Source: Blasia pusilla
Lineage: Eukaryota
Length of the DNA stretch: 64,000 nt
Direction: 5' to 3'
NCBI GenBank assembly: GCA_050084515.1
Contig: CM114271.1
Span: 29,698,001 to 29,762,000 of the forward strand
A program made the position numbers and the translations under genes. This document shows, piece after piece, positions 1-45,149 of the stretch. Under the pieces are notes generated by a model that had not been told where the DNA came from, did no database searches, and saw only the letters and a program-made list of their open reading frames with translations. The stretch's first letter is position 1; each line of letters starts with the position of its first letter.

Positions 1-196
1 TTCTTATGGGTTTCCTAAGATCTTTGATGCGTTTGGACCAAATTTGCATAAGCTTTGTAATGCCACCTTACTTGTCCTAAACACATCTTAGGAATAAAAT
101 TTATGGTCCAAAATGTAGTCCAATCCCCAAACGCTAGTCACATTCCAAATCCGGTTCTCATATCTTTGGCAACCTCGCTTCCTAGACTAGAGTCCT

Positions 197-300
197 TGTC
201 GTGCGAATCCACATCATCATACAACATACATCGTTGACATACCATACTCACCTACATACATAACATAGACGAGAGCATCCACAAACACAAGTGTACCACT
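197..300 (-). repeat. LTR segment B, terminal copy (B2)
   Basis: 104-bp direct repeat of 673..776, about 4 mismatches by eye; ends ...GCACGACA on minus, next to the TSD. Confidence 0.9.
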
Positions 301-302
301 AT

Positions 303-670
303 TGAAATCCGTGCAAGACCTACTGTCATAAAACACATATAGAATCACATACAATCGAGCTAAACCCACTCCACAATGGGAGAATCTAGGTCGAAGCTTG
401 CGGGAACCACCATAGCCAATACCTCTACTCACTACCAAGGCTAACTCCCAATGCAACAGGCTCAACTCAAAGAACTAACTGTTCTTTGAGTGCACTCCAC
501 ACTATATCCTCCAACCTAAGAGCGGGCCCTACTGGAAAAGTCACCCTCAACAGAGTAACCCCCAACCTTATGTATGAAACCGCATCTCTACCTAGACACT
601 ACGACCCTACATAAGGTACGGCCTCTACTAGCACACTATACTCTATGACATAATCCAAATGGTCATGACA
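303..670 (-). repeat. LTR segment A, 3' copy (A2)
   Basis: Direct repeat of 9667..10038 (about 29 substitutions plus one 4-bp indel by eye); reads TGTCATGAC...GATTTCA on minus. Confidence 0.92.
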
Positions 671-672
671 AC

Positions 673-776
673 TGTCGTGCGAATCCACATCATCATACAA
701 CATACATCGGTGACATACCATATTCACCTACATACATAACATAGACAAGAGCATCCACAAACACAAGTGTACCACA
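673..776 (-). repeat. LTR segment B, PPT-adjacent copy (B1); B1+A2 (303..776) forms the canonical 3' LTR
   Basis: Starts TGTGGTACAC on minus, 2 nt after the polypurine tract; duplicate of 197..300. Confidence 0.9.
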
Positions 777-778
777 AC

Positions 779-790
779 TCGCCCCCCTAA
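779..790 (-). promoter_or_regulatory. Polypurine tract (plus-strand primer site)
   Basis: Minus strand reads TTAGGGGGGCGA-gt-TG, immediately upstream of LTR segment B1. Confidence 0.8.
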
Positions 791-954: not shown

Positions 955-1092
955 AGTACATCGAGGACAAACCCACCTTCCAGTAGGAACAACATCCATA
1001 TGTGGAGTCAAACACATCATGTGCCAACCCCTAGAACATCGATCACACACCAACATACGGGCTGCGTTACCAGCAAACCCACACAACATACA
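955..1092 (-). other. PHD finger at the C-terminus of the integrase/pol polyprotein
   Basis: CMLC...MLVCDRCSRGWHMMCLTPHMDVVPTGRWVCPRC matches C4HC3 PHD spacing and ends ORF 952..1425. Confidence 0.92.
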
Positions 1093-2249
1093 CCTCAAGC
1101 TAGCACGTATCATGGCTAAGCTTGGGTCAACAGTACCATCCACATTTGGAAGATGACATGGCGCATAATTACGCACATGGTCCTTCCAAAAAACTCCATC
1201 ACGACCCTCCAACATGAGAACTCCAGAAGCTAACACCTCGCGCACTCGTAAAATAGTGCGGCCTGCCATCACATCCAACGTTGTCTGTGCAATCTGCTGC
1301 AAATAGACATAGTCCCCCACATGGAACCTACAAATCGATGGTCGATAACCTCCACCCTGAATGGTTGCATACTGCAACGTATCCCTGTGTTGAGCACTGG
1401 CAAGATTCTCAAAGGCTGTTGGCATAACTCTCCGAAAGAGCTCTGCCTGCTAAGAACACACTCTCATCCACATCTCTGGGTCGTCAAGGTTCACCACCTT
1501 ACCAGACTCCCAACGAATTGTTGCTGGCAAGTTTGGATCTCGGCCGTCTAACAGAAAATAAGGTGAGAAGGAAGCCAAGGATGCTTGGTGGCTGAACCTA
1601 TATCCCATGGCTAACCATGGCAACTGAATATCCCAGTCTCCAAGATGCCCCTTCTGTAGGCCATACTTGCGCAATGCCCTATTCATTGTCTGAACCACAC
1701 ACTCAGCCAAATCATCCGCCTCTTGATGATCTCGAGACGTGGTCCGATGATCAATCAACGCCTTGTCACACAAGACCTGAAACTCACCATGAAACTCTGT
1801 ACCCTGGTGGGTCAGCACTTCAGCTGGTGCACCAAAATGACTAAGCACTCTATCAAGAAATATATACGCCGTTCCCTCACTTGCCTTGTCAGGTAATGCC
1901 ACCAACTCAATCCACTTGGAGAAGTGCTCCACCATCACCAACACATATCGATGATGTCGTACATTCAACGGTAACGGTCCCGCAAAGTCCACACTCCAAC
2001 GGTAACCCAACCCCATAATAGGCAAGGGGTGTAACTGTGGTGTAGGGGCATTGAATGATGCCCTCACCCGGTCACAAACCATACAACGTGACACCAATTG
2101 CTGCACCTGAGTATGCATGCCATGCCACCAAGGAGTAAGCTATACGTACGCTTTACCCCAAAATGTCCCAACTCCTCATGGGCATGTTGCACAATACACT
2201 CTCTCTGAGCCAAATGCGGCACTACTCGTACTCTACCATCCTCCCACAC
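1093..2249 (-). pseudogene. Gypsy integrase (HHCC zinc finger, rve core, C-terminal extension)
   Basis: HAHEELGH...CMVC zinc motif; WSVDFAGP, VLTHQGTEF (catalytic D appears mutated to H), FSPYFLL. Split by a frameshift and a stop. Confidence 0.92.
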
Positions 2250-2270
2250 ATGGAGAATATGTGTTCCCTC

Positions 2271-3974
2271 CTATCGATACCTCTTAGCAAGTTGAAGAAT
2301 ACGGTCTCGCTCCTTGGCACTCACTATGCCTGGCACCCTACTGGTCCGTAGGAACTCCAATACCAACACATCATCATGAATATCTCGCTGATCCGTACCA
2401 CCATCTCCAATCTTAGGATCTGAAGGTTGGCCATCTACTCTCTGACTAGAGTAAGATGTCATGTGGTCCTCCATACTAAAGTCCACCCCTAACCAACATA
2501 AAAAGGCAGATCCATGCCAACCTGGCACCATCTCCTCATCAACCTCGCCATGCCATCTAGCCCCAATTGCATCCTCTTGGCTAGTACATGGGTTCCTACT
2601 CAACCCATCAGCATCAAGGTTGGCAACTCCAGGTCTATGTACCACCTGGAAGTCATACTCCTGTAAGATAAGAGCCCACCGTGCAAGCTTCCCTGTAAGC
2701 TTGTCAGACTCCATCAACCACTTAAGCGGATGGTGATCAGTAACAAGGGTAAACTGTGTGCCAAACAAGTAACAACTAAAGTGTGCCACAGCCCACAATA
2801 CTGCCAAGCACTCTCCCTCATATGAACTATAGCGCGACTCCGCTGCATTATTCGAACGACTTGCATAGGCCACCACAAACTCCATGTGCTCATCATCATG
2901 TTGTATCAACACCGCTCCAAGTCCCAACCTACTCCAATCAGTATGTAATTGAAATGGGCGCCCTCTGATAGGTCTCCTCAAGATAGGCGCCGCCACCAAC
3001 TGGGCCTTGAGCTCCACAAAAGCTCTCTCATGATCATCTCCCCAGTGCCACTCCTGATCTGATTTCAGCAATTGGTTCAAAGGCTTTGCCATAGCACTAA
3101 ATCCCTTCACATACCTCCGATAGTAGTTCGCCAATCCCATGAATGCCCGAACTCTACTCACATCTACCGGACGAGGAATAAGTGCAATAGCCTCCTCCAC
3201 CTTTGCTTGCTGAACTCCCAAACCACCTGGATAGATCACATGACCCACGTACTCAACATCCTCATGGAAGAACTTACACTTTCCTAGATGCTAATGTAGA
3301 CCATGAGCTTTCAACCGCTCAAACACAATTTGCAAATGTATCTGATGTTCCTCCACCGTGTTACTGAACACCAAGATATCATCAATGTAACATCGAACAA
3401 AATCCAACCTTGCTAGGATCGTGTCCATCACTGTCTAAAACTCGGCATGTGCATTCTTCAACCCAAAGGGTAAGAATTTCCACTGGTACAAACAATCCTT
3501 GCCATGAGAGTTGACACCCCAAAATGCTGTCTTGGCCTTGTCACTCTCTCGAATCGGCAATTGATGGTATCTTGCCCGAAGATCCAAAGTACTGAAAATC
3601 TTTGCATGTCCCACCACATGAAAGATTTCCTCAGGTGTAGGCATGGCATACCTATCAGCCTTGGTCTGCCGATTGATAGGACGGTAATCTCCACACATCC
3701 GCCTGTCCGTGTAGTTGCCATGCACATCCTTTTAAGTAGGCATGACGGTGGCTGATGCATACTCTCCATGCGACAACTCCACTAATCCAGCCTCCAAAAG
3801 GTCCAATGTCCTACTCTGAATCAGGTCCCTCTCCATATCACTATATCGGTAGGGACGACGGAAGATTGACGAATCACTAGCCAAATCAATCTGTATATCG
3901 GGTCCAACCAAAGCACCCAACTCCTTCATGCTAAAGGCAAAACAACTCCTATAAGCACGTAGGAACTGTGTCAA
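2271..3974 (-). pseudogene. Gypsy reverse transcriptase and RNase H
   Basis: RRMCGDYRPIN, IFSTLDLRARYHQ, LPFGLKNA, YIDDILVFS (about 3363-3389), RAFMGLANYYRRYV, LHTDWS, VVAYASR, TDHHPLKWL, ADGLSR; internal stops. Confidence 0.96.
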
Positions 3975-4314
3975 GCGTCGTTTCTCACCTCCCGTAAGCT
4001 TGGGCCCAAGTAATGGCTCCTAAGTCTCCTCCATTGGCACACTAGAGGGAGGCGACGCCATTGGTCGCTACATAACCCCCTCACACGATGGTACACCCTT
4101 AGCTACACCATCATCTGAGCAAATAACTCCTCCACCAGCATGAGCAACCAACTCCACATGCCCAGTCATTACATCCCATTTACTCCAAGGATGCAAAATA
4201 CTATTCTCCTCGCCCCCAGCCGATGTCTCTACCGTCCCGGTAGCCATCGAGCTCATCACAAGGGGTGGAAGATCCATAGACATAGTCCAAAGTCGACGCT
4301 GCTCGGCCATACCA

Positions 4315-5270
4315 AGACTCAAAATCCAAGTCAAACAATTCAGGTCCATGGCCTGACCCAACACATGACGTCGTGAAGCCTCGTAAATGGAAGCAACCGT
4401 TGTCACACCAAAGAATAAATCCCATCATCGACTCTCTCTCATCAGTGTTAGGCTCCACCAACTGTCGCATATGAGAATCCCATACAAGCACGTGACCACC
4501 TTCCCTGTAGGCATGTGACGAGGGAAAACTCACAAATGTGGGTAGTGCCATCCTAGGCTGGCCCACACGGTTCACCACTACCATGGGTGATCAATCAATA
4601 ACCCTCACCACTTGAGAAAGTCGCCAAGATATCAAGATATCGCATCCCCTTTGTAAGGCAAGGATCCCGCTGCACTGCATCATATGCTCGACATAGAACC
4701 TCCCTAGGCAACAAGTTTGTCCACCAAAAGCGTGGACGATGTGCACGTGAGCCAACTCATGTTTGCATCAACAACACCGCTGGTCCAATCAAGACCGCAC
4801 CTCATGAACACTCGCCATCATCCGGTCCGAGTGTCACCCAACAATGGAACATTCTCCGAATGTAAGCCGAGCACGCGGCGTGATGAACTGAAGATGTCGT
4901 AACACCCGTAACATCTCCCAAAACAATCAAGACCTAGGGTCATGTAATCCCTCACCACGACCAGCACGCGTATGACCCTGACATGGCCATCCAGCAATCA
5001 CCAAATCCACAGGTTCAACTCTCTCAAGGCCTTACGCCCCCAACAATGCAATGTGTGACGGCAAAGCACGCTGGTACCCACAAATAGCTGATGGCGGCAA
5101 AAACTCAGGATATCTCCGCATCAACTGACCAATATTTCGGGATGAGACTCTTTGGCCGTCTCATCTTGCTCCACATACACGTATCTCCGCACAGGAATAT
5201 CGGCCTGCAACACTGCAGCCAAACCAGTGCTAATCCCACCAAAGAGATCTAACACACAAATGCCCTCCGG
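4315..5270 (-). pseudogene. C5 DNA-cytosine methyltransferase domain embedded in the Gypsy pol region
   Basis: Hand translation across frameshifts gives motif I VLDLFGGISTG (about 5225-5255), IV VDLVIAGWPCQGHTRAG..GLHDPRS*LFWEMLRVL (about 4905-5010), VI ENV (4848-4856), VIII GSRAHRPRFWWTNLLP (about 4705-4755), IX EPNTDERESMMGF, and X RRHVLGQAMD. All are in canonical order. Confidence 0.9.
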
Positions 5271-5705
5271 CGGATACTTCCATACAATGGGTGTAGTATC
5301 CAAAGGAAATAACCCAACTGGACCAGAAGTAGAAGTCCGCCGTGGGGCCTTCTCTTCCTCGTGAGGTATAGCAGCCTCACACCAAGCCTCCTGCACTAGG
5401 CGATCAGCCTCCTGCCGTAGTGCACTGCCTGAACTCCAAAGTGGCACATCCAACAATGAGGATGCCACTACTGCAAAACTAGGGACCTCCTGTACCTCCT
5501 CGTGCATAGGAGAATCCATAGCAGAAAGATTACCCTCCAAAAAGTCTCTTGGCCAAGTGACTACTCCACTAAAACCAGCCACAGATGCTAACACTGTTGG
5601 GGAAGACCCTCCTAGTCGAGCCCCATAAATAAATCTCACAGGAACCTGACTCATACGTCCATCCCCGGACTGCCAACCAGGTCTATAAGATGTTGTCTTA
5701 GTCCA

Positions 5706-6038
5706 TTAGTCCATCTGAAAACCCATCGGGTACAATACTGCTCCTCCAACTAATACATCATACGATTCGGCTGATGTGACCACTGCACGTACTCCCAACC
5801 GGGAGCTATCAGTCGCATGATCTGGTCTCATCTGTACAAACAACTTCTCCCATGTCATGAATTGAGACCTATCATTGGCTCCTCCAAGTGATGTTTGAAT
5901 CTGGAATGGGCAAGGCTCAAGCTCTGACCTCGGAATACCCAAACCAATGCATGCCGCCTTTCCCAACATTAAAGGTTGGGCACCAGAGTCTAACAAGACT
6001 CTATCTAGTCTATACACGTGTCCTGTAGGACTCACCAA
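5706..6038 (-). pseudogene. Retroviral-type aspartic protease
   Basis: VLLDSGA active-site motif and downstream YDVLVG. Confidence 0.85.
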
Positions 6039-6518
6039 TCATAATATCCCACTGCGGTTGTCCAACATACATACACCATGTGTAAGCCTCTCACGATCAA
6101 TGGCTGGCCGAGCTGGTAATGCATCCATCTTTGCCGCTGCTGCCTGCCAAGAAGCACTGTTACTCAATGCTACACCTGACATAGAGGGTCGCTCCACCAC
6201 AACACCTTCATCCACCTCAGCACGTGTAGTAGTAACACCCCCACGTTCACACAACGTGGCTGCTAGCTGAAATACAGGAGCTAAGTCAACTCCTAAAGCC
6301 ATCAGCTCCGTGGTTGAAAACAATGGGGATCCCAACACTAAAGTTGCCATCCGCAATACTGCACTGGATGTTGCATCCGTGTCTACTACACGCAATGTAG
6401 ATGCCTCAGTCCCCAATGTAGGCTCAATAGGCTGCGTAGGAACCATGGATGGAATCCTAAGCACTTCAGACAACAAGAATGACCGGGGAAGCCTAACCTG
6501 CCTCCCAACCTCACCCCT

Positions 6519-8250
6519 CTATGGGTCCAACTCCACAGTAGCACCACGTGGCTGTGACGCTCGAGTGGATCCTCTTGTAACTGCACATGATGCCTCAACT
6601 TGTGCTGCACTCACCATATAAGAGAGATCATCCCTTCCATAAGAGGTGGAAGCCCCTACTCCCGAACCTACTCTATGTTGGATACCAGCCATAGTAGCCA
6701 ACCTCTGCTCCAACTGCTCAATCCTGGTAGCCATAGTTGACTCTATCGTAGTGGTAGGGGTAGCCACCGTAGGCTCTCCAACCGCTAGTCCACCTCTACC
6801 ACCCCTATCACCTCTACCACCTCGGCCTCTCGGAGCTACTCCACCACGGCCGCGGCTTGATCTCAACTCTGGATGAAGATCAAAGCAACGCTCTCGAGGA
6901 TGACGTGGTCTCCGGCAATGATCACACTGAGTTGGGGCCGACTGAGGCCCATCCTCCAAAGTCCGTCTCCCATCCTCTTGGGAACAAAACCTCCTAACAT
7001 GATCACCTCCACATGTCCAACATGACTGTCCTTGCTGCGGGGCAGCAAATGAAGGCAATGGTCTCTGCGCAAGTGTCCCTCTAGGACCTGACTGAGGTCG
7101 TGTGTACCCCCCACAACTCCCACTACTACTACCACCACCACTACTACAAGAGTGTGAGGTGGACTGTTGAACACGAGAAGTAGTAGTTGAATCCCTACAA
7201 AACGCGGATGTCACCACTCTCTCCTCCACCATGTTAAGCTCAATCTTCTCAGATTAGAGCAAATACATGGGCCAATGTGGGTGAATCATCACGCATAAGA
7301 GTAGCATCACGTACCCTGCAGCACAACTCTTAGTCCAAGATCCCATACCAAAACTGGATTGCCTGAGCCTCAGTCACACCCTGGGTAACTGAAATCAAGC
7401 GTCGCATACGAGTGTATGCCTTACGAAGACTCTCACCAGTCTTTCGCTCAAATTCCTGAAGACTCCTCAACTTCTCTATCTTCACTCTCTGATAGTTCTT
7501 CTTCAACCTCTTGAAGAACTCTGCAACCGGCCTGAATGATGTTGGGGCACTAGTACCTCCACTAGTACCCCCACTAGTACCTCCTTGGGTACCTCCATTG
7601 GTACCCCCACTTCGGCTCGTACTCGCACCACTCAATGTCGGGCTGGCTGACACAGTAAGAGCACTACTACCACTACCACCATGGGTGATAGACACATAGC
7701 GCGGAGACCAATATTGTCTCCAAGCCTCAATCTCAGCACCATGGTCCCTCCTAAACTCATGGTAATCATCCATGGGTGGTCCCTCCAAGTGCTGAAATAA
7801 CCCCTTCCAAGCCAAGAAGGGTGTAAACAACGTGGCGTTCCGCAACATTTGCATATCACACCACGTATCAAACTCCTCAATGAAGTCCTCCAACTCAATG
7901 GTGCCCACTGCACCCGAGTATCTTCGTGGGCCCTTCATGGCCCCATATATCTCGTCCATGTCCCAAATCAATGGAGTTGCAACACTCGATAACAACGTAG
8001 AAGACTCGGTGTTTGGAATACCCCCGTCCTCCTCTTCATCAATCGTCGGAAGTGGAAAAGGTAGCCGATACTTCAATCCACTCCGTGTAAAACCACCAAT
8101 GTCCGTACCACGGTCCCCAACCAAACCACCAGAAAGCTCCGTGATGACCAACGCCGATGCCGCACCACCACCAAATCACCACCACTAAGTAACCAAGTGA
8201 CGTCGATGTCGTTGTACTATTTTAGCTCTGCTAGCTATGGGTGTAGGCAA
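6519..8250 (-). pseudogene. gag (capsid-like region plus two CCHC zinc knuckles)
   Basis: ORFs 7330..8151 and 6519..7232; CWTCGGDHVRRFC and CDHCRRPRHPRERC followed by an RGG-rich stretch. The start is approximate. Confidence 0.82.
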
Positions 8251-9652: not shown

Positions 9653-9666
9653 GTTAGTTCTTTGAG
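9653..9666 (-). promoter_or_regulatory. Primer-binding site of probable self-priming type
   Basis: CTCAAAGAACTAAC directly follows the LTR end ...TTTCA. It lacks the TGG start of tRNA PBSs and is the reverse complement of LTR-internal GTTAGTTCTTTGAG. Confidence 0.7.
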
Positions 9667-10038
9667 TGAAATCTGTGGAAGACCTACTGTCATAAAACAC
9701 GTATAGAACCACATACAATTGAGCCAAACCCACTCCACGATGGGAGAATCCAGTTCGACGCTTACGGGAACCACCATAGCCAATAGCTCTACTCACTACC
9801 AAGGCTAACTCCCAACGCAACACGCTCAACTTAAAGAACTAACTGTTCTTTGAATGCACTCCACACTATATCCTCCAACCTAAGAGCGGGCCCTACTGGA
9901 AAAGTCACCCTCAATGGAGTAACCCCCAACCCTATGTATAAAACCGCATCTCTACCTAGACACTATGGCCCTCCCTACATAAGATACAACCTCTACTAGC
10001 ACACTATACTCTACAACATAATCCGTATGGTCATGACA
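9667..10038 (-). repeat. 5' LTR, segment A only (A1)
   Basis: Direct repeat of 303..670; TG...CA termini; followed by the PBS; no B segment upstream. Confidence 0.92.
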
Positions 10039-11189
10039 TCCTCTCAAGTCTTGGTTTAGGTTTGGTTCCGGTTTCCTAATCGCAACCATAAACGCATGAA
10101 ACGCTCAACCTTGTTTGCGTCTCATATCTTGTGTCTCCAACGCAAACCATCCTAGCGTGAGCCCACTAAAGTTCTGATGTTCCGCTTAGCGCTTTTTGGT
10201 TATGAGGGTCGCGACACATAGGCTCTGTCCCTTAGTTTTTTCGGAAAGTATTTTGGTTGTGTGGTGTCTAAAAAAATAGAGTCCTTATATAGTTTGGATT
10301 CAAAATATACATCAATCAAATATAAATTTTTAACTCAAAATTGGATTCTGATCCGATATTTTTATTTGGTATTTTCTTAAAATAGTTTCAGATTAACTTT
10401 TATAAAACTCAAAAAAAAGTAGTGGTTATTGAATCAACTCATTTACCTAAAAATGTAGATCTACCTTTAATTTCTCCAAATTGATAAGACAAAATAACAA
10501 ATCTTTGATTTTTTTTATCTTTCTCAACAAAAAGAAAATTTTCTCTTCTATTAAAAATAAATTTTCAATGAAATAAAAAATCTTGATATTTTTAAAAAAA
10601 AATTATTCCTACTTCTTAAATAATATCTTCCATTTTTTTATACAACCATGTAACACAAATAATAATAATTTAGTCACTTTCTTTTGTCTTAATTCTATTA
10701 GGTCAAACAAATAACTATGAAGAATATCTAAATATAAAATTTTAGATGGAATGGGAAATCACAATAATAGAAAAATAAAAATCTCAATTTAGGATTTCTA
10801 TTTTTTATTTATTCTTAAAAATGGTTTCCAATTATTAGGAATACTAATTATTCTCTTTATATCATGAATTATTAGATAGTAATATCTCAAGTCCATCCAA
10901 TGATGCACGATTTTTTTGTGAGAAAACATAATATGATGAAATCACTAAAATGTATTAGAAATCTTGGAGATACAAAGTGGTCGTCCGTGCGCTCACAGAA
11001 GAGCTTCGATGGAACCTAAAAATGGAGATAATCTGACATACGAGAATACGCGACCGTTGCGGCTCCTAAATTTTTCACTACTCGAGAAACTAGGGTTTTT
11101 TACCTATTTTTCTTCATTTCTATTTATAGAAAATTTTGTCATGGGCTTCAATTTTGGATCCCCGCGTCACATTAGAGTGCCCTGTATCC

Positions 11190-12616
11190 TGATGTAATAT
11201 AGGGTTAGATATCCTAGTAATGCTACTCCGGAAACCACCTATGTAATATTACTATAACTCCTTTGATGTCAAAGTCAGAACCATCAATCTAGACTTCTCC
11301 TCATATAAGGGAGCCGATCAGATAGATGGTGTTGAGAGAAGTGGATTTTGAGAATCCAACACCCCCCCTCAATATCCACTCTCATGTGGACTACTGTCTT
11401 GGACCGATGCCAAGATCCTTCAGATGTCGTTGAAGTTTATCTCCGCTCAAGGCTTTGGTGAAGATATCTGCACGGTTAAGCTCTATTAGACAGTAGACTA
11501 ATTTCAAAACCTCTCTCGCGATTAACTCACGAAAAAATGATATTGGATCTCTATGTGCTTTGTACGAGCATGAAACACACAATTATGTGCTATAGCAATG
11601 CAACTCTGATTGTCACATCACATTACAATAGTACTTTTGGTGCTTCTCCTATGTCCTCCAATATCCATCTCAACCATACTGCTTCACAAAATGCAAGAAG
11701 CTTAACAAGCCGCTTTGTACTCTACCTCGATAGAAGAAAGAGCCACTGTAGGTTGCTTCTTGCTGATCCATGATACCACACTTGAGCCTGCCAAGAAGCA
11801 ATAACCCAAAACAAATCTTGAGAATCTGAGTCTCCTACCCAATCCGAGTCACAAAAGGCTATCATTTCAATCCCTGCTCTAGCTGTAGGTAATGCCATAC
11901 TCGATAGTGCCTTTAATGTACTTCAACACATACATCCCTACCTTCCAATGATTCTCACGAGGCTTAGTTGAGAACCTACTCAACACTCCTACAACAAAGT
12001 TAATGTCTGGTCTTGTGTTGCACACAAATATCAAATTGTCCACAAGCTTTCTGTACAACTTTTCATCTACCAATGGCGAAACATCCTCCATTAAGAATTT
12101 CAACTCTACCTCCATTGGCGAGATCACTACCTTATACTCGGTCATCCCGAATGCCTTCAAGATTTCTCTAGCATACTTTTGCTGAGATAGAAAAATAGAA
12201 TACGACTATTGCGAAATCTCCAAGCCTATAAAGTAGTGCAAAAGACCTAAATCTGACATTTCAAACCAAGATTTCAACACTTCCTTCATTTCCTCTATTT
12301 TCTTACTATGGTCTCCTATGATGATAAGATTATCCACATAAAGGACTATCAACATATACATCCCATCTTCTCAAAACACATACAAATTTGCTTCTGACAG
12401 AGTGTTGATGAGACCCCTCTCTCGGAAGAATGTATCTATATGTTGATATCATACCCCTGGGGCTGGCTTCAACCCATACAATGCTCAATGAAGCAAACAC
12501 ACTTTCTCTTCTGATTCGGGTGTCTCAAAACCTGGTGGTTGAGATACATACACCTCCTCCTTGAGACTCCCGTTCAGAAATGCAGACTTTACAAAGTGGA
12601 TGTTGAGAATCCAACA
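11190..12616 (-). mobile_element. Internally deleted Ty1/Copia remnant (RT-RNaseH fragment, PPT, about 170-bp 3' LTR)
   Basis: VKSAFLNG, YVDNLIIIGD, YRKLVDNLIFVCNTRPDINFVVGVLSRF, ADIFTKAL. PPT GAGGGGGGG precedes TGTTGGATTCTC at 11361. The first 21 nt or so of the LTR recur at 12596-12616. Confidence 0.88.
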
Positions 12617-38591: not shown

Positions 38592-41418
38592 GGACATTAA
38601 AGGTCCCGGGTAATAAGTGCTTGGCATGAGGTTGGAAGCTCTTGTCCGCACATGAAGCCCGAGACTACTTACTGCCCATTCCAACTCGAATGGCCTCCAT
38701 GCAAGGACAGGAAATTGCGACCCACTCAAAGCATAGCGCTCTCCGCTGTGTTCCAGTGAACGAAGGATTCCACGATTCTGTCCAAGATTGGTTTCATGGT
38801 ACGGAGCCTTTAACGCCCCAACCGTGTAAACCGAATCTCCTAATATTTTCATTTGCAGTATTACCCATCTCAATATCTGTCTAATCACTCTTGGGCACGG
38901 TGCGAGCATTAGTATTAATTAAATAACCTCGCACGAAAATAGTTACATTGAAAAATCTGAATGATAAGTGGAAATTATGCCGTTATCTTAGTGGGAAATT
39001 TTAGGAATTGAGAAATATGCATATATAAATTAGTCCATGCACACTTAGAAATGATTATCCTAAATTGTGTGACTGAATAATTTAATTTACCTCCAAAACC
39101 AATCCCCCAAGTGATCTAAGATAGATTACAAAATGTGATGATCGGGATGAGTATGACAATATGGATGATCATGTTAATAATATAAACTAGTGGACAGCTC
39201 ATGCCATGCACGAGAGCAAAGAGATTAATGATATTACACACAACTTTTTCTCATTACCTCAAATATGGGGAATATCTATCCGGTTGTCTGGTTATCACAT
39301 GTCAAGCAAATGTGTACTTGTAAATCAAGAAGTCACTCTCCAATAAGAACATAGCTTTTATTGATTTTGTTCTTAAATAAATTTTGTTATGAATTTCAAT
39401 AGTAATTATTGCATAGTATCCTTTGATTTTCAATGAAACATATAAATATCTAACTACAAGAGGCATTTATTGCGTATAATCGGGCAACAAGATTCGGGAT
39501 GGGAAAAAAAATCAATTTCATAAATAAATATCAAAGCCCCTTGCATATCAGCAAATATCAGGGCTAGGCTAGAGGGGCTGGTGGTTTAGTTCGGACAAGG
39601 TAGGTTGGGTTTGGGCCCTACTCCACACAAGAGTTTTGCACTTCGGGAGGGCTAAGCTGCCCCTATAGGCAATGAATGCCTGCAAACGGATGTTAATGGC
39701 TTTTGGATTTTCAAACACCTCTCTTGGTAACAAATGGCATGTTCGGCCTTGTCTTGACTAGTCTGTCCCATGGACGGACAAGTTCTTTTTTTTTGCAACC
39801 ATGGGGGTTTGTTGTATTATGTATCAAATAGTTGTTGGGGATTCAATAAATATCAAATATTACCGTATTATTCTATAAATGTCAAAAAAGTACCAATTTT
39901 AGGGGAAAAAAACTACACATACCTTAATCTTACATGAACTAGTTTTGAAATTTGAAACCTTGTATGAATATTTGTGTGATGCTCTTAATAGCACTTATGA
40001 TGTGTTCACTTTTTTCAATATTAAACAAAAAAACTCATGTGAGAATATCCTCATAAACAATGTCATGTAAACACGCATTCTTGATCACATGTAATCTCAA
40101 TTCCTACTATTCTATGGTCCAAACTCTTAGTATCTACTCTCGATAAGACTATACATAGTTTTCCATGAAATACAGATATTTGTAAGTAAATAATATATCC
40201 ACTATATGTAGTATTTCACTTTTAGACTTATTAATAGTCATGGCCGAAGCAAGATGGGCATGAAATCAAAATCTCATCAAATCAACGGATAAATTGAAGC
40301 TCGACATTATCAAAAGAATTTTTGGAATGAAATCTTGTCTCTAATGTTACTTTGTGTCATGATCTTAGCATCTAAAAAATTTGCAAAAATCTTAGAACCA
40401 CGAATCAAGAGTCGTTTGCTTGAACCTTCAAACCATTCATATTTCTCAATAACTTTATTGGAGCATCAATATCAAGGTAAGACGATAAGGAGGTATTTTG
40501 AATGGAAAACTTGTATGAAAAAACTTTGTAGGGTAAATATGACTCATTCCATCATTTGGAACAAAGTTAGAACTTAAGTAGGTGCGTGATTGCGAATTAA
40601 TGCAAATATTGATCTTTAAGTTAAAATATATCAATAGTATTTTGTAGATTAAATTTATTTAAAATAGGTTGAGGTGCATTCTTACCTCTCCAATGCATGG
40701 TGATATGATTGCAACATTCATTTCATCAACATTTTGTTTCCTAGAGTCAAAATAGCGATATTCCTCACAAAGATGACGTCATTAAAACTTTGTAGATCAT
40801 ACTGATATTATAGTGTCAATGAGGCCACTTATATTATCATCCTTGTAGATAATGTCTAATAGTACTTCACTGGTGTCTTCTACTTAATTGAAATAAATAT
40901 GTCCATTGCGTGCTCCAACTTTCAATAACCAATTTGTAGAATCTTGTTGATGAAAAGACTCATCACCTTTTAAACTCTCATGTTTGCTACTGGTTTCCCA
41001 ACCCTTACATAAGACCATAAATAAGATCAATAAATAATAGCTCATATAATTTCTGGTCATTCTCCATGATGAGTAACAAGAAGGACTCAAAAAAAATCAA
41101 CAAAAAAAACAATCAATTTTCCACCAAATAAAAAATGTTAGAGGAGCTCAAGTCCTATAATGAATCCTCTAAGATCCATGTACCTTTGTCCCTCTAGTCT
41201 TTGTCTATATTTCGGACTCATTCTAGAGAATCGGACGCGCTTCCATCCTAGTGTGAGCCCACTAGATTTATGATGTTCCACTTTTATCCTTGAGACGCCC
41301 AATAAGGCTCGCACTTTATTTAGAGCTAATGTCTTATTCTAGATACTCCGACGTGCTTCCATCCTCGTGTGAGCCCACAAGAGTTTTGATGTTTTGTATT
41401 GTCATATGTTTGGCTATA

Positions 41419-41424
<6 letters not shown>

Positions 41425-41460
<36 letters not shown>

Positions 41461-41477: not shown

Positions 41478-42099
41478 ATTAAATTCAATATCCGTTACTT
41501 ATGTCAATCCCTAGGACAGACATGTCCGAGTTGGCCTAGGTTTGCTCAACCCACAATTTAGACCCGGGTTTGTCTAGCCCACACCCTTGTCCCGCAACCC
41601 ACCACCTGTTTGTAGCCTGCATTGGCTTATGGCTTGTTTGCGGAAGGCAAGCTCTAGGCCTTCAATGACCCTACGGACCTTGGAGCACGCCAAACGCGAG
41701 CTTCTAGCCTACGCACACTAGCACGATCCCTACTTGTCTCCCTTAATCCGAGCCCGCGCGTGTTCTTGTGTCTAGAGCCTACACGAACAAATGGGGTACC
41801 AAAAAAAGCCATGCGCAATGGTGATCACAACTTAGTCGTATTATGTTTATCCATGGGAAAGCACAAGGGTGCAAATTATGGATATCCCATAATAGGACTA
41901 AGTCGTGATCACAATCCATGCAGAATGAGCAATGGTGATCACGACTTCGTCATATTATGTTTTGGAAGGGCCTTCTATATTGTATCCCTAGGTTTTACAT
42001 TTGACTTTTGGGCAAAGATAAACCCCTATCAACAAGGTTGGAAATTAGATGAAGGATGAGCCAATAAGCTACCAAAGTAGTTTGTAGGGAATCTTGCTC

Positions 42100-43780
42100 A
42101 AAATCTTGATGGCTCATTTCAAGGGTCAACCACAATAATAGCAACTTATAGTGGAGTTTTATGTTGACACGTAGATTTATTGGAGGAGGACGCTATGCAA
42201 TGAATATTCTTTTAGAGAATAGTCTTCATGAGTGGCATGCGATAATGAGCGTGGCTACACTTGTTGGTGATATCTTTTTAGCTTTGTGGGATATAAGATT
42301 CGATTTGTAGAGGAGTGTAAATGATTGTGCAAGGCATGTGTAGGGTAGAGCTTATGCTTTGGAGCAAGATAGGTACCTTGTACTCCAGATCCATGACTAG
42401 ATACTTTGATATCCTTGGACAACACATTGATAGTGTGGTAGTATTCCCATAAGGGTATGCATATAATGGATCCTTTTGGAGAGATTATAACTACATTGGT
42501 TGTAGTGTTGCACGAGGATGCATGTGTGAGTCTAAAAATACTCATATGTTGAGAAAGTTGAGACCACGAGGAATATCTCATTACACCACATGGTGGGGCA
42601 TAGTATCTTGATATCTTGGATCTAGGGCAACTATCTTAGATTTGTTACTTGATTAGCATCATGAAGGTAGTTGTTGGATCATGCTATGGACCAAAACTAT
42701 CTTACTTAGATATTTAGTCTAGGTTTGGTCCAGTAGAGATTACAACTTTGATGAGAATTCATTTTCTTTAATTATGTAGGTCATAATGGTATGCATAGTG
42801 TCGGTGCTCGAGTTGGGAGAGTAGATGAGTATTATTCCAAAGATTGTAGATTAGCAACCATCACCCTGCTAGTCTACAAAGGTTATGAGAGAGACTTGGG
42901 AGCCTTTGATTGATCCTAGTTTGACATAATCGAAGAGGAGATGATTGTTAAAGTTCTCATGGAGTTAGAGGGATTGCTTTGCAGTCAATATGCATGATTT
43001 GGGTACATTGAAGGATCTAGATATTTGGATGAAGTTGGCTAGTGATACACCTACTTTTCAACGATCCAAAATATATTTCATCATAGACCAAGTCTTGATT
43101 TAGAGTAGGAGTTAAGACTTCTAAAGGTTGATGTTGGATTGGTGGAGAGATTTCTGTGAGAATATGAGTTAGCCATAATTATATTTGCAGAGAAGGACAT
43201 GCATAGCGAGTGGACCAATAGATGGAATCTACTAGATGAGTTGAGAATACCATCATATCAATCATCATACAAAGGCCTATTGCTATGCTATGCCTATTGC
43301 CAAGAAGATCTTTGATGCGGTAAGGCACGGGAAGGTCCTCGGAAGTTTGGATTCCTACACGTAGTAGATGTCATAAGTTACTCATATGTGTGGAAGATAA
43401 GTACAAGACAACATTTTAAGGATTCATCCTTTCCAGGATGATAATTTCTACCAAGGTTAGTTTTTCTTATTTGGGTTGAAGAATGCCCCTATGGAGTTTT
43501 AGCTTGTTATGCAAAGGAATTCTGTTGGTTAGGATTTTGCAAGGTGTTATATGGATGACATGATGGTCTTAAGTACCACAATTAAGGAGCATGGGTAATG
43601 TCTAGGGGAGATGCTTCAACAGTTATAATTACATGGGCTAAAGTTGCATCAAAATATTCTTTAATGATCCTATTGAATATCTTGAATGCATAATTTGTCC
43701 AGGGGTATTGGAGTTTAGAAGATAAAGGTAGAAGCCATAGTGCGTATTTCTTGTCCTATAAATGGAAGTTGATTCCAAAC
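42100..43780 (+). mobile_element. Highly degraded relic of a Gypsy element related to 197..10038 (MTase start, pre-RT spacer, RT)
   Basis: SLDNTLIVW*YSHKGMHIMDPFGEIITTLVVVLHED (from 42412) aligns to PLDTTPIVWKYPPEGICVLDLFGGISTGLAAVLQAD. CFAVNMHDLGTL..LASD aligns to CFAFSMKELGAL..LASD. Also YAMPI..IFDAV, FGLKNAP and CYMDDMMVL. Confidence 0.75.
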
Positions 43781-45149
43781 TTCCATGGAATCAACGAAGG
43801 TCTTTAAAAGAAGAAAATGGGGTATCATATCACCTCTGTTGGAAAGAAAATGAACAAAGTTAGTAAGTTCCATATGATTACCTAAGTGGCCATGTAGTAT
43901 TTTCATCTATTTTGTAATGGAAAGAATAGAGGTTGCGTGATCAATATACTAAAAACAATATTTTAGAATAAGCAAGACTTCATGCTAGTTTATAGTATAT
44001 CATTGTAAAATAATGAGGTGTTTCTTGCCTTGCATAAAGTTGGGATATTAATAATGTACAGTAAAACACTCTTTTCTTAAAAGGAAAATTTCAGAAATTT
44101 CAAAATTTGGAAATATATCTACCATGCTCAAAACTTAACATGTGTAAATGGGATGCCAATGCATCATTCAAGCATTCTTGTTGGAGTAATTTAATGACTC
44201 CCATCATTTTCTTTGTGGCTTCTAAGGATGAGGTGATATTATAGATCTTGTGGAGAGGAAATTAAATGAAGTGAATTGCCAAGTCGCATGATGATATATA
44301 TAAACTAGTTTGGCTCCTTTATTATTCAAGAAGTTGTAGTAGCATATCTAAAATAATATGCTAAAATTTCCAAGTGTTCAATTCAAATATAATTGTATGT
44401 AATTCGATAACGTTCATTTTTTACTTTCCATAAGAGGTAATATGTTAGCTCATATTTCTCCTTTAAAAAGAAATTTTAATTCGTTCAGAAATTAGAAGAG
44501 AGTTTCTTCACATGATAAGCCCCAACCCCCCAATCTTCCTCATTTGATAATATAGATGACACTAGTAAGACACTCATCTATACTATTATGGGCGAGTGCC
44601 TTCTCATTTCGCAAACAGTCCAGCTTGTGATATTTCACATTTTGGGCCATTATCACATCTAAGTAGCTGATAGGCCGAGATCTATCATGGATAGGGCGTA
44701 GGAGCCAGCAGACTATCTTGAGTGTAACTTTGTCCCACGGTGTCAGATGAGGTTGAGGATAGGTCCATTGTGTCACGAACATCGTTTCTGACAACTAATC
44801 TGTTGAGGTCTTTCACAACCGGGTGACTTGTTGACCAAGTCACCCGCCCCTAGTAGCCTGTGCGTTGTCAAAGCAAACAACGATACACAAAGGTGGAACT
44901 TCGCATTTAATTGTTGTACATAATCTTAAACCATAATGCATTGAAGATCTCTTTGAAACTATAGAAAGGGTAGGGATAACAAAATAATGGAGCGGAAGAA
45001 AACCAAATCTGAGAGAGTTGTTGCTTTAGGGTTTTTAGATGGCAAGCAGCGTTTTGATTCATTTGCCTTCTTGACTATCACACAACAACAATATTTATAA
45101 GAAACTAAAAGAATCTGCACTTACAAAGGATATAATTTTTATAAACCCA

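Follow-up and report, generated by a model that had tools for sequence, protein, structure and literature searches.

A decayed Ty3/Gypsy insertion in Blasia pusilla and its family of retrotransposons with a DNMT3-like cytosine methyltransferase domain

The insertion and its methyltransferase domain

The 64,000-nucleotide stretch of the Blasia pusilla genome analysed here (GenBank assembly GCA_050084515.1, contig CM114271.1, positions 29,698,001 to 29,762,000; referred to as the window, with positions counted from its first letter) contains a Ty3/Gypsy-type retrotransposon, which spans positions 10038-197 on the minus strand (table 1). Stop-to-stop open reading frames (ORFs) and three-frame translation reveal, in this order, gag with zinc knuckles, an aspartic protease (PR), a methyltransferase (MTase)-like stretch, reverse transcriptase (RT), RNase H (RH), integrase (INT) and a PHD finger, and Pfam matches in the window comprise RVT_1, RT_RNaseH, rve, Integrase_H2C2 and PHD. 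The order PR-RT-RNaseH-integrase together with a DDE (rve) integrase, by which Ty3/Gypsy elements are recognized, is found by Pfam both here and in the related protein P0048. We consider it very probable that this is a dead, transition-decayed insertion from a family with a conserved DNMT3-like MTase, i.e. an element of the KnitGypsy-Dnmt3 kind known from the charophyte Klebsormidium nitens.

The MTase-like stretch is located between the protease (LLDSGA, 5996-5979) and the RT (YIDD motif at 3389-3366). Along the minus strand it exhibits DLFGGISTG (5249-5223), GWPCQG (4992-4975), ENV (within 4859-4848), SRAHRPRFWWTN (4750-4715), EPNTDERESMMGF (4455-4417) and RRHVLGQAMD (4373-4344), in which we read the C5-MTase motifs I, IV (with the catalytic cysteine), VI (ENV), VIII (RxR), IX and X, all key residues being present. 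The domain is complete and its motif order is non-permuted. A first-pass annotation made from the sequence alone had placed these motifs between protease and RT with an intact catalytic cysteine, and had supposed that stops and frameshifts hide the domain from ORF-based inspection. Both statements hold: all motifs could be located in order, none of the nine single stop-to-stop ORF pieces of the region matches Pfam, and a path of seven pieces is required to read through it. The PF00145 match which that annotation had proposed to look for is also there, since the frame of motif IV, with X at the stops, reaches 29 bits (E 9.6e-7), above the cut-off of 22. A profile built from seven intact family members aligns to the window in collinear pieces of 71.5, 236.6, 44.2 and 50.7 bits, which together cover profile positions 1-349; these scores rule out a chance cluster of MTase motifs. 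The previously proposed extent (5270-4315) was right as to location and slightly too narrow, the real span being 5306-4260.

The window copy is dead and makes no enzyme, because it is broken throughout, in the domain and in the rest of the element alike; for this copy the earlier description of an element encoding its own MTase is overstated. There is no open frame for the MTase, with six frameshifts and four stops within 5306-4260. Outside of the domain, premature stops are found at 6519, 6039, 5706, 4020, 3732, 3435, 3291, 2271, 2064 and 1450, and the frame changes near 7254 (in gag, by tblastn against the Marchantia protein P0002) and near 2100. In 4768-4876, which holds three of the frame changes of the window, contigs from other copies depart from the window sequence by length differences of one letter, which fits breaks private to the window copy. 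Furthermore, between positions 4000 and 6100, sites at which the window has T or A and other copies have C or G are 2.3-3 times as frequent as the reverse in three out of four sequencing runs (51:22, 52:17 and 56:19; the fourth gave 57:48). Judged from these counts, the excess has the pattern of C-to-T deamination decay in the window copy. The ratio of observed to expected CpG in the element is 0.6.

With respect to the kind of MTase, comparison with solved structures indicates that the domain is closer to DNMT3 than to DRM, DNMT1, DNMT2 or bacterial enzymes. A relative from Calypogeia finds DNMT3A as the best match (8e-11), followed by DNMT3B, DRM (4e-7), HaeIII (4e-4) and DNMT2 (9e-3), and the family profile gives DNMT3A (3.8e-18), DRM (2.3e-9), HaeIII (1.1e-7) and DNMT2 (4.7e-5). 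An AlphaFold model of the domain (pTM 0.74, mean pLDDT 63.6) is matched in Foldseek by DNMT3A/B/C at every listed rank from 1 to 50 (E 4e-16). An Atlas search, taken as a lead, gave generic methylase clusters and, by structure, DNMT3A. Profile, solved-structure and fold matches agree in this way with the idea of a Gypsy element that carries a DNMT3-like C5 MTase in its coding region. The likeness to host DNMT3A, 3B and 3C includes motif order, catalytic cysteine, ENV and RxR besides the best sequence and fold match, but the element domain is only about 22-24% identical to them, its motif IV consists of PCQ followed by a bacterial-like DPRS, and more sequence separates motifs VIII and IX. This bacterial appearance of PCQ and DPRS had been recognized in the first-pass annotation and is borne out by the motif IV frame of the window, which on its own best matches HaeIII and HhaI (E 4e-4), whereas the whole domain best matches DNMT3A. 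Unlike in DRM, the motif order is not rearranged. Neither PWWP nor ADD domains gave a Pfam match in the ten relatives scanned; the element enzyme is a DNMT3-like catalytic domain and not a host-type DNMT3 protein.

Table 1. Positions of the element, its parts and a second family member in the window
Feature	Position	Strand	Remarks
Target-site duplication AGGA, 5' side	10039..10042	(-)	same four letters adjoin the end of B2 at 196-193
Repeat A1, 5' LTR-like (LTR, long terminal repeat), 372 nt	9667..10038	(-)	TG...CA ends; 91% identity to A2
Primer-site sequence CTCAAAGAACTAAC	9653..9666	(-)	immediately 3' of A1; exact 14-letter complement within A2 (479-466)
gag region, broken	6519..8175	(-)	zinc knuckles 7022-6984 and 6926-6885; weak Retrotrans_gag match; stop at 6519-6521
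Aspartic protease	5706..6038	(-)	LLDSGA 5996-5979; stops on both sides (6039-6041, 5706-5708)
DNMT3-like C5 cytosine methyltransferase domain	4260..5306	(-)	7 pieces, 6 frameshifts, 4 stops
Pieces of the MTase reading path	5306-5154, 5151-4882, 4877-4827, 4824-4792, 4789-4652, 4647-4417, 4409-4260	(-)	
In-frame UAG conserved in the family, between DNMT and RT frames	4068..4070	(-)	window: TAG CGA CCA
Reverse transcriptase and RNase H	2271..4019	(-)	premature stops; RVT_1 30.4 and 48 bits; RT_RNaseH 121 bits
Integrase, H2C2 zinc site and rve core	1450..2270	(-)	rve 43.6 bits; Integrase_H2C2 22.8 and 20.2 bits in two frames; frameshift near 2100
PHD finger, C-terminal end of integrase frame	958..1092	(-)	PF00628 39.7 bits (cut-off 24); all C4HC3 ligands present
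Polypurine tract AGGGGGG, just upstream of B1	782..788	(-)	same tract in L049, L061, L042
Repeat B1, 103 nt	673..775	(-)	97% identity to B2; ends ...ACA, then GT, then A2
Repeat A2, 3' LTR-like	303..670	(-)	
Repeat B2, true 3' end of inserted unit	197..299	(-)	
Target-site duplication AGGA, 3' side	193..196	(-)	
Second, far more decayed relative	41919..43811	(+)	PR and RT about 30% identity to P0007

Distribution of the family and selection on the domain

Is the domain a peculiarity of this insertion or a trait of its family? A search restricted to longer proteins, with protease, linker and motif I as the query (306 amino acids), retrieved 42 relatives, headed by Marchantia polymorpha gene models, i.e. 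polyproteins with 69% identity to the PR and linker of the window, and followed by Sphagnum, Calypogeia and further assemblies. Hosts are named for some of them, namely Marchantia polymorpha, Calypogeia fissa and two Sphagnum species, and 35 of the 42 have the DNMT domain, at least in part. PF00145 scores of relatives range from 24.7 to 47 bits, and intact relatives include gag-PR-DNMT (P0002) as well as PR-DNMT-RT-RNaseH (P0007) proteins. A profile search of 1.84 billion representatives resulted in 10,545 matches at E<=1e-3, of which a threshold of E<=1e-30 left 440 cluster representatives; scores above 222 bits are reached by all of the best 150 matches, which are mostly long polyproteins. 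In a metagenome scan, 65 out of 76 loci proved to be family members, and among the 31 loci with a complete single-frame domain this domain is free of stops in six (L005, L007, L018, L039 and L040, plus the algal-type L062), with 1-10 stops in the other 25. The DNMT domain is a conserved coding part of the family and not a one-off capture; in line with the first-pass annotation, it is a family trait, which some relatives retain as an open in-frame sequence and which shows low ratios of non-synonymous to synonymous substitution rates (dN/dS) between lineages.

Loci L001-L057 are metagenome contigs with elements 77-80% identical to the window element at the DNA level over nearly the full length, ends included. 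A host sequencing run (X1) holds 37,509 contig pieces at least 80% alike on a 2.1-kb stretch, where depth does not equal copy number, and similar copies are found in three other runs of the same organism and two others, e.g. on a 2.7-kb contig with 56 differences in 1,124 bases.

The domain does not always occupy the same place. Among 235 proteins, it follows the protease or precedes the RT in 81, but comes after RT/RNase H or before the integrase in 91. This second architecture usually ends in a PHD finger (detected by Pfam in P0218, P0220 and P0225, and in the DNA loci L058, L059 and L062). In a midpoint-rooted FastTree of 168 domains plus that of the window, there are two pure clades of 63 (support 0.985) and 106 sequences (support 0.7), and named members of the second one are all chlorophyte algae (Haematococcus, Chromochloris and Cymbomonas). 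The RT-RNaseH-DNMT-integrase-PHD clade has a homologous DNMT domain (mean 36% identity) and likewise a PHD finger after the integrase, but differs in having one long open frame without UAG (L058, L059 and L062) and in the position of the domain after RNase H instead of after the protease; terminal repeats were sought in these three loci, and none were found on their short contigs. Because the likeness of RT and integrase between the two types (37-45%) is similar to that of DNMT (31-40%), these alignments suggest a single element lineage whose DNMT domain has changed its place.

Within the same tree, the window domain stands beside a Sphagnum fallax protein, with only 97 shared positions underlying this placement. 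The two Sphagnum sequences, whose rows are partial, and the window fall between the liverworts Marchantia and Calypogeia in the bryophyte clade. As a weak hint, element and host trees may disagree, either via old paralogous lineages or by horizontal transfer.

Residue conservation was assessed in 168 relatives with near-complete domains, from which matches not spanning profile positions 30-320 had been excluded, with the exception of P0015 and P0018. The catalytic cysteine is kept in 165 of them, the glutamate of ENV in 167, RxR and motif I in 164 each, and the glycine of motif X in 163. By contrast with the near-invariant cysteine, the proline of PCQ often gives way to glutamate; this unusual variant of motif IV (ECQ) occurs in 43 of 84 domains of the algal type and 11 of 55 of the bryophyte type. 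Between lineages, dN/dS, determined by NG86, is low, with 0.14 for L039-L040 (dS 0.26) and 0.16-0.17 for L005 and L007 against L018, where dS is close to saturation (about 1.8). The young pair L005-L007, however, has a ratio of 0.90 (dS 0.06). Median values are 0.49 for all 269 usable DNMT pairs (dS 0.20) and 0.34 for 44 RT pairs (dS 0.18). The DNMT domain of the window is 45.7% identical to that of P0031, as compared to 36% for the PR-linker region. Taken together, these substitution ratios point to purifying selection between lineages and neutral decay within them.

The window contains a second and far more decayed relative on the plus strand (table 1), which is a much older member of the same family. 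Its DNMT remnant (42415-42745) retains weak collinear matches to profile positions 2-35, 36-60 and 310-339, with approximately 61-309 missing; terminal repeats were sought for this copy, and none were detected. Just upstream of it there is a GA-rich simple repeat, which translates into ERERERER (around 41390-41460, plus strand), and a pair of 61-nt direct repeats (41217-41277 and 41333-41393) is also close by. Next to the main element, minus-strand ORFs at around 11390-12205 resemble the RT/RNase H end of a Copia-type element, and an AT-rich flank (GC 0.29-0.35) there adjoins the GC-richer Gypsy copy.

Expression layout, terminal repeats and priming

DNMT and RT share a common frame in 25 out of 32 bryophyte-type loci, and exactly one stop separates the two domains in each of four loci with an open DNMT domain (L007, L018, L039 and L040). 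At this site, TAG or TAA is followed by CAA or CAG in 36 of the 44 rows listed, made up of TAG CAA CCC (22), TAA CAA CCC (8), TAG CAG TTA (2) and one case each of TAG CAA CCA, TAG CAA CTC, TAG CAA CCT and TAG CAA TCA; three further rows are variants at the same site, including TAG CGA CCA of the window (4070-4068), and in five the stop is at other places. Because this single in-frame stop follows the domain and because the predicted proteins of Marchantia and one further group end 60-110 residues past it, ORF1 would consist of gag-PR-DNMT, with RT-RH-INT-PHD being reached by presumed readthrough. Some members feature one long frame instead (P0048). The initial assignment of the MTase to the inside of pol was correct in placing it within the coding region, but in the family it is the C-terminal part of the gag-PR-DNMT frame ahead of a conserved UAG. 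Insertions of about 0.8-1 kb are present between DNMT and RT in L011 and L010, and that in L011 includes a partial repeat of neighbouring sequence.

Gammaretroviruses use a gag-UAG-pol arrangement. The arrangement seen here, with a lone in-frame UAG before the polymerase frame and CAA or CAG as the next codon, also resembles readthrough of the tobamovirus type, for which UAG_CAR_YYA is given as the motif in the portion of PMC3542737 drawn on here. Differences are that the commonest third codon is CCC, not YYA, and that the site comes after protease plus DNMT and not after gag.

The terminal repeats are arranged in an unusual manner. A1 and A2 are LTR-like, but the outer 3' end of the insertion is B2, a copy of the 103 nucleotides preceding A2, such that A2 is flanked by repeat B on both sides (table 1). 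Repeat B is absent on either side of A1 in all four elements considered (window, L049, L061 and L042). The layout A-coding-B-A-B of the window recurs in L049, L061 and L042/L045, and B pairs around an A-sized gap also occur in L009, L057 and L043; these loci add up to 7 of the 14 whose sequence extends at least 5.2 kb beyond the start of the domain. A1 and B2 are flanked by AGGA in the window, and four-letter duplications match at the same borders in L049 (AAGG) and L061 (AATC); L042 shows no clear target duplication, with three of four letters agreeing. An LTR composed of A+B or B+A, with one copy lost, was therefore rejected, since A1 lacks an adjoining B in four of four elements and the duplicated target letters border A1 and B2. 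Split direct repeats, by which DIRS and Ngaro elements are recognized, are thus present in the window, L049, L061 and L042/L045; membership in these groups was rejected, as a DDE integrase is present and a tyrosine recombinase gave no Pfam match in the window or the relatives scanned, where rve and Integrase_H2C2 were found instead.

A G-rich polypurine tract is situated just before B1 in the window, L049, L061 and L042, and the B1|A2 junction (...ACA, two letters, TGT...) looks like two abutted element ends. By textbook reverse transcription, a polypurine tract before B1 predicts B-A...B-A, whereas the genomes show A...B-A-B. The genomic form might arise if a B-A...B-A product were circularized and then opened at the B|A junction.

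Priming appears unconventional as well. The sequence that follows A1 lacks an initial TGG and is complementary to the interior of A: its 14 letters (9666-9653) have an exact complement in A2 (479-466), and 11 letters have one in A1 (9843-9833). In L049 the complement comprises 14 letters with two compensating differences, in L061 10 letters, and in the distant L042 nine letters of a different sequence. Because this complementarity between primer site and A covaries across the four elements, it suggests self-priming of reverse transcription, by analogy with Tf1/sushi and plant Tcn1 elements, which are described as self-priming in the portion of PMC6317226 drawn on here. These chromoviruses share with the window element the lack of a tRNA-type primer site and an LTR-like repeat with a segment complementary to the sequence directly after the repeat, but carry a chromodomain where the window element has its PHD finger. 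The latter (PF00628, 39.7 bits, 1092-958) lies after the integrase, and the first-pass annotation was right to report it.

Precedents, possible roles and significance

Retrotransposon-borne MTases have been reported before, and the Symbiodinium and Klebsormidium precedents named in the first-pass annotation were correct (de Mendoza et al. 2018, PMC5890265; the following refers to the portion of that text available here). In KnitGypsy-Dnmt3 of Klebsormidium nitens, DNMT3-related domains lie within the Pol frame of a Gypsy element, whose copies show Ka/Ks <0.2 and whose repeat layout is that of DIRS elements, A-coding region-B-A-B (PMC5890265). In Symbiodinium, SymbioDIRS-Dnmt3 and SymbioLINE-Dnmt likewise represent retrotransposons carrying a DNMT under purifying selection, and SymbioDIRS-Dnmt3 resembles the window family in being DNMT3-like and in having split repeats and two domain orders; these elements possess a tyrosine recombinase or an endonuclease, however, where the window element has a DDE integrase (rve) and four-letter target duplications (PMC5890265).

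As compared by description, not by sequence or domain position, KnitGypsy-Dnmt3 and the window family share a non-rearranged DNMT3-type domain within the Gypsy coding region and the A-coding-B-A-B layout, and the Ka/Ks below 0.2 of the former is paralleled by 0.14-0.17 between bryophyte lineages (with a value of 0.90 for a young pair and an overall median of 0.49). Their hosts differ, being a charophyte and a land-plant (bryophyte) lineage, respectively. Readthrough stop, self-priming complement and PHD finger are features of the window family that go unmentioned for KnitGypsy-Dnmt3 in the available portion of PMC5890265, as do Marchantia, Physcomitrella and PHD altogether. No protein match was from Klebsormidium by name, which is weak evidence given a word prefilter and a ceiling of 2000 residues in the search.

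This kind of element was later named 'streptophytes (Gypsy-DNMT3)' (bioRxiv 10.64898/2026.05.21.726589), and the later literature, as far as the portion at hand goes, says only 'streptophytes'. The main text of a survey of plant LTR elements mentions neither methyltransferase nor PHD nor Marchantia (PMC6317226), and no description of Gypsy-DNMT elements in land plants came up in full-text searches of the literature, although supplements may hold some. The architecture, which the first-pass annotation did not regard as a standard one of land-plant Gypsy elements, is thus not unknown, as the literature already has Gypsy-DNMT3 in streptophytes, and members of the family are frequent in bryophyte data. 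New here are the occurrence and the abundance of the family in bryophyte-type genomes and, on the side of anatomy, the UAG-CAR stop, the primer-site complement and the sister clade.

In intact members, ORF1 (gag-PR-DNMT) would be translated in bulk, and RT-RH-INT-PHD would be made only via stop-codon readthrough; from the place of the domain ahead of the conserved UAG it would follow that the MTase is produced in Gag-like amounts. Reverse transcription would be self-primed from the segment within repeat A, and the PHD finger may guide the integrase to chromatin. As for the MTase itself, the role that we favour, if only tentatively, is methylation of the element's own new DNA before or at integration, in line with a published hypothesis. 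The first-pass annotation had further supposed that the MTase would be cleaved from the polyprotein and packaged, and could methylate either the cDNA or the insertion site, steps that are likewise conjectural.

Several observations weigh against this overall picture. Most copies are broken, with only six of 31 complete single-frame metagenome domains free of stops. The median DNMT dN/dS of 0.49 (269 pairs) and the 0.90 of L005-L007 fit decay after insertion and are, taken alone, no proof of selection. The exchange of proline for glutamate in PCQ could mean an altered chemistry. Confidence in the fold model is intermediate, with pLDDT <50 between motifs VIII and IX. The published readthrough motif ends in A, unlike the commonest stop context, TAG CAA CCC, and the genomic form A...B-A-B conflicts with the B-A...B-A product of textbook reverse transcription. 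Finally, shared descent with KnitGypsy-Dnmt3 is argued from architecture alone, and the Klebsormidium domain produced no methylation in yeast, in its only published assay, which the authors call inconclusive (PMC5890265, in part).

The latter result is also what would favour a conserved domain that is not an MTase of element cDNA, but either methylates RNA, as the authors raised for the LINE-borne enzyme (PMC5890265, in part), or serves as a DNA- or S-adenosylmethionine (SAM)-binding module in assembly, priming or targeting. The frequent ECQ variant (43/84 algal-type, 11/55 bryophyte-type) and the long, poorly modelled stretch between motifs VIII and IX point in the same direction. Yet every residue needed for C5 transfer is retained, de novo DNA methyltransferases come nearest in sequence and fold, with the tRNA-methylating DNMT2 far lower (9e-3 and 4.7e-5), and the related DNMT3 of a Symbiodinium DIRS element methylates CG in yeast (PMC5890265, in part), so that we regard such a role as unlikely, if worth keeping in mind.

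About equally doubtful is an enzyme acting in trans on host chromatin, near the insertion or genome-wide, with the PHD finger as its partner in a reader-writer pair, an idea put forward in the first-pass annotation. The PHD finger is conserved along with the domain in both architectures, and Gag-like synthesis would leave ample free enzyme; in bryophyte-type elements, however, PHD and DNMT would be in separate products except upon readthrough, when protease cleavage would part them, and the methylome of Klebsormidium is ordinary and plant-like (PMC5890265, in part).

Very improbable is that the bryophyte sequences are domesticated host genes and the window copy a pseudogene of these: several matches are gene models from genome annotation, and UniRef labels one as DNA (cytosine-5-)-methyltransferase, but gag, protease, RT, RNase H, integrase and PHD finger are carried alongside, terminal repeats and target-site duplications occur at different sites, and the 37,509 contig pieces of run X1, at least 80% alike on a 2.1-kb stretch, add an abundance that contradicts it too. 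Least credible of all is a host DNMT gene or pseudogene that landed in a single Gypsy copy and decayed neutrally, for which the frameshifts and stops of the window domain and the loss of most of the domain in the second relative might be cited, but which is refuted by the same position of the domain in three named bryophyte genera and 65 metagenome loci, by five open bryophyte-type (type A) copies plus an algal-type one, by dN/dS of 0.14-0.17 between lineages and by catalytic residues kept in 163-167 of 168 relatives; moreover, the decay is that of the whole copy, because breaks hit gag, RT and integrase as well.

Returning to a family-borne enzyme that acts on the element's own DNA, one may go further and envisage a Gypsy lineage with a PHD-bearing integrase, extending from bryophytes to chlorophytes, which has long kept a DNMT3-like enzyme and moved it within its coding region, and in whose bryophyte branch this enzyme, made as a tail of Gag-PR in Gag-like amounts, methylates self-primed cDNA prior to the integration of a permuted form equal to an opened two-LTR circle. 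As a whole, this scenario is speculative and we would not bet on it. If true, new insertions would arrive already marked, and integration of a (B-A)...(B-A) circle opened at B|A would be a new route for a retroelement with a DDE integrase. Even by themselves, the permuted repeats with clean target duplications present a concrete puzzle for the replication of such elements.

More generally, these elements bear on the wider question of what role retrotransposon-borne cytosine methyltransferases play. In genome annotation, such polyprotein pieces should be kept apart from the DNA methyltransferase genes of the host. The transformable model Marchantia polymorpha has open copies that are annotated as genes, and because this species offers good genetics and methylome methods, the function of a retrotransposon-borne MTase becomes testable in a land plant.

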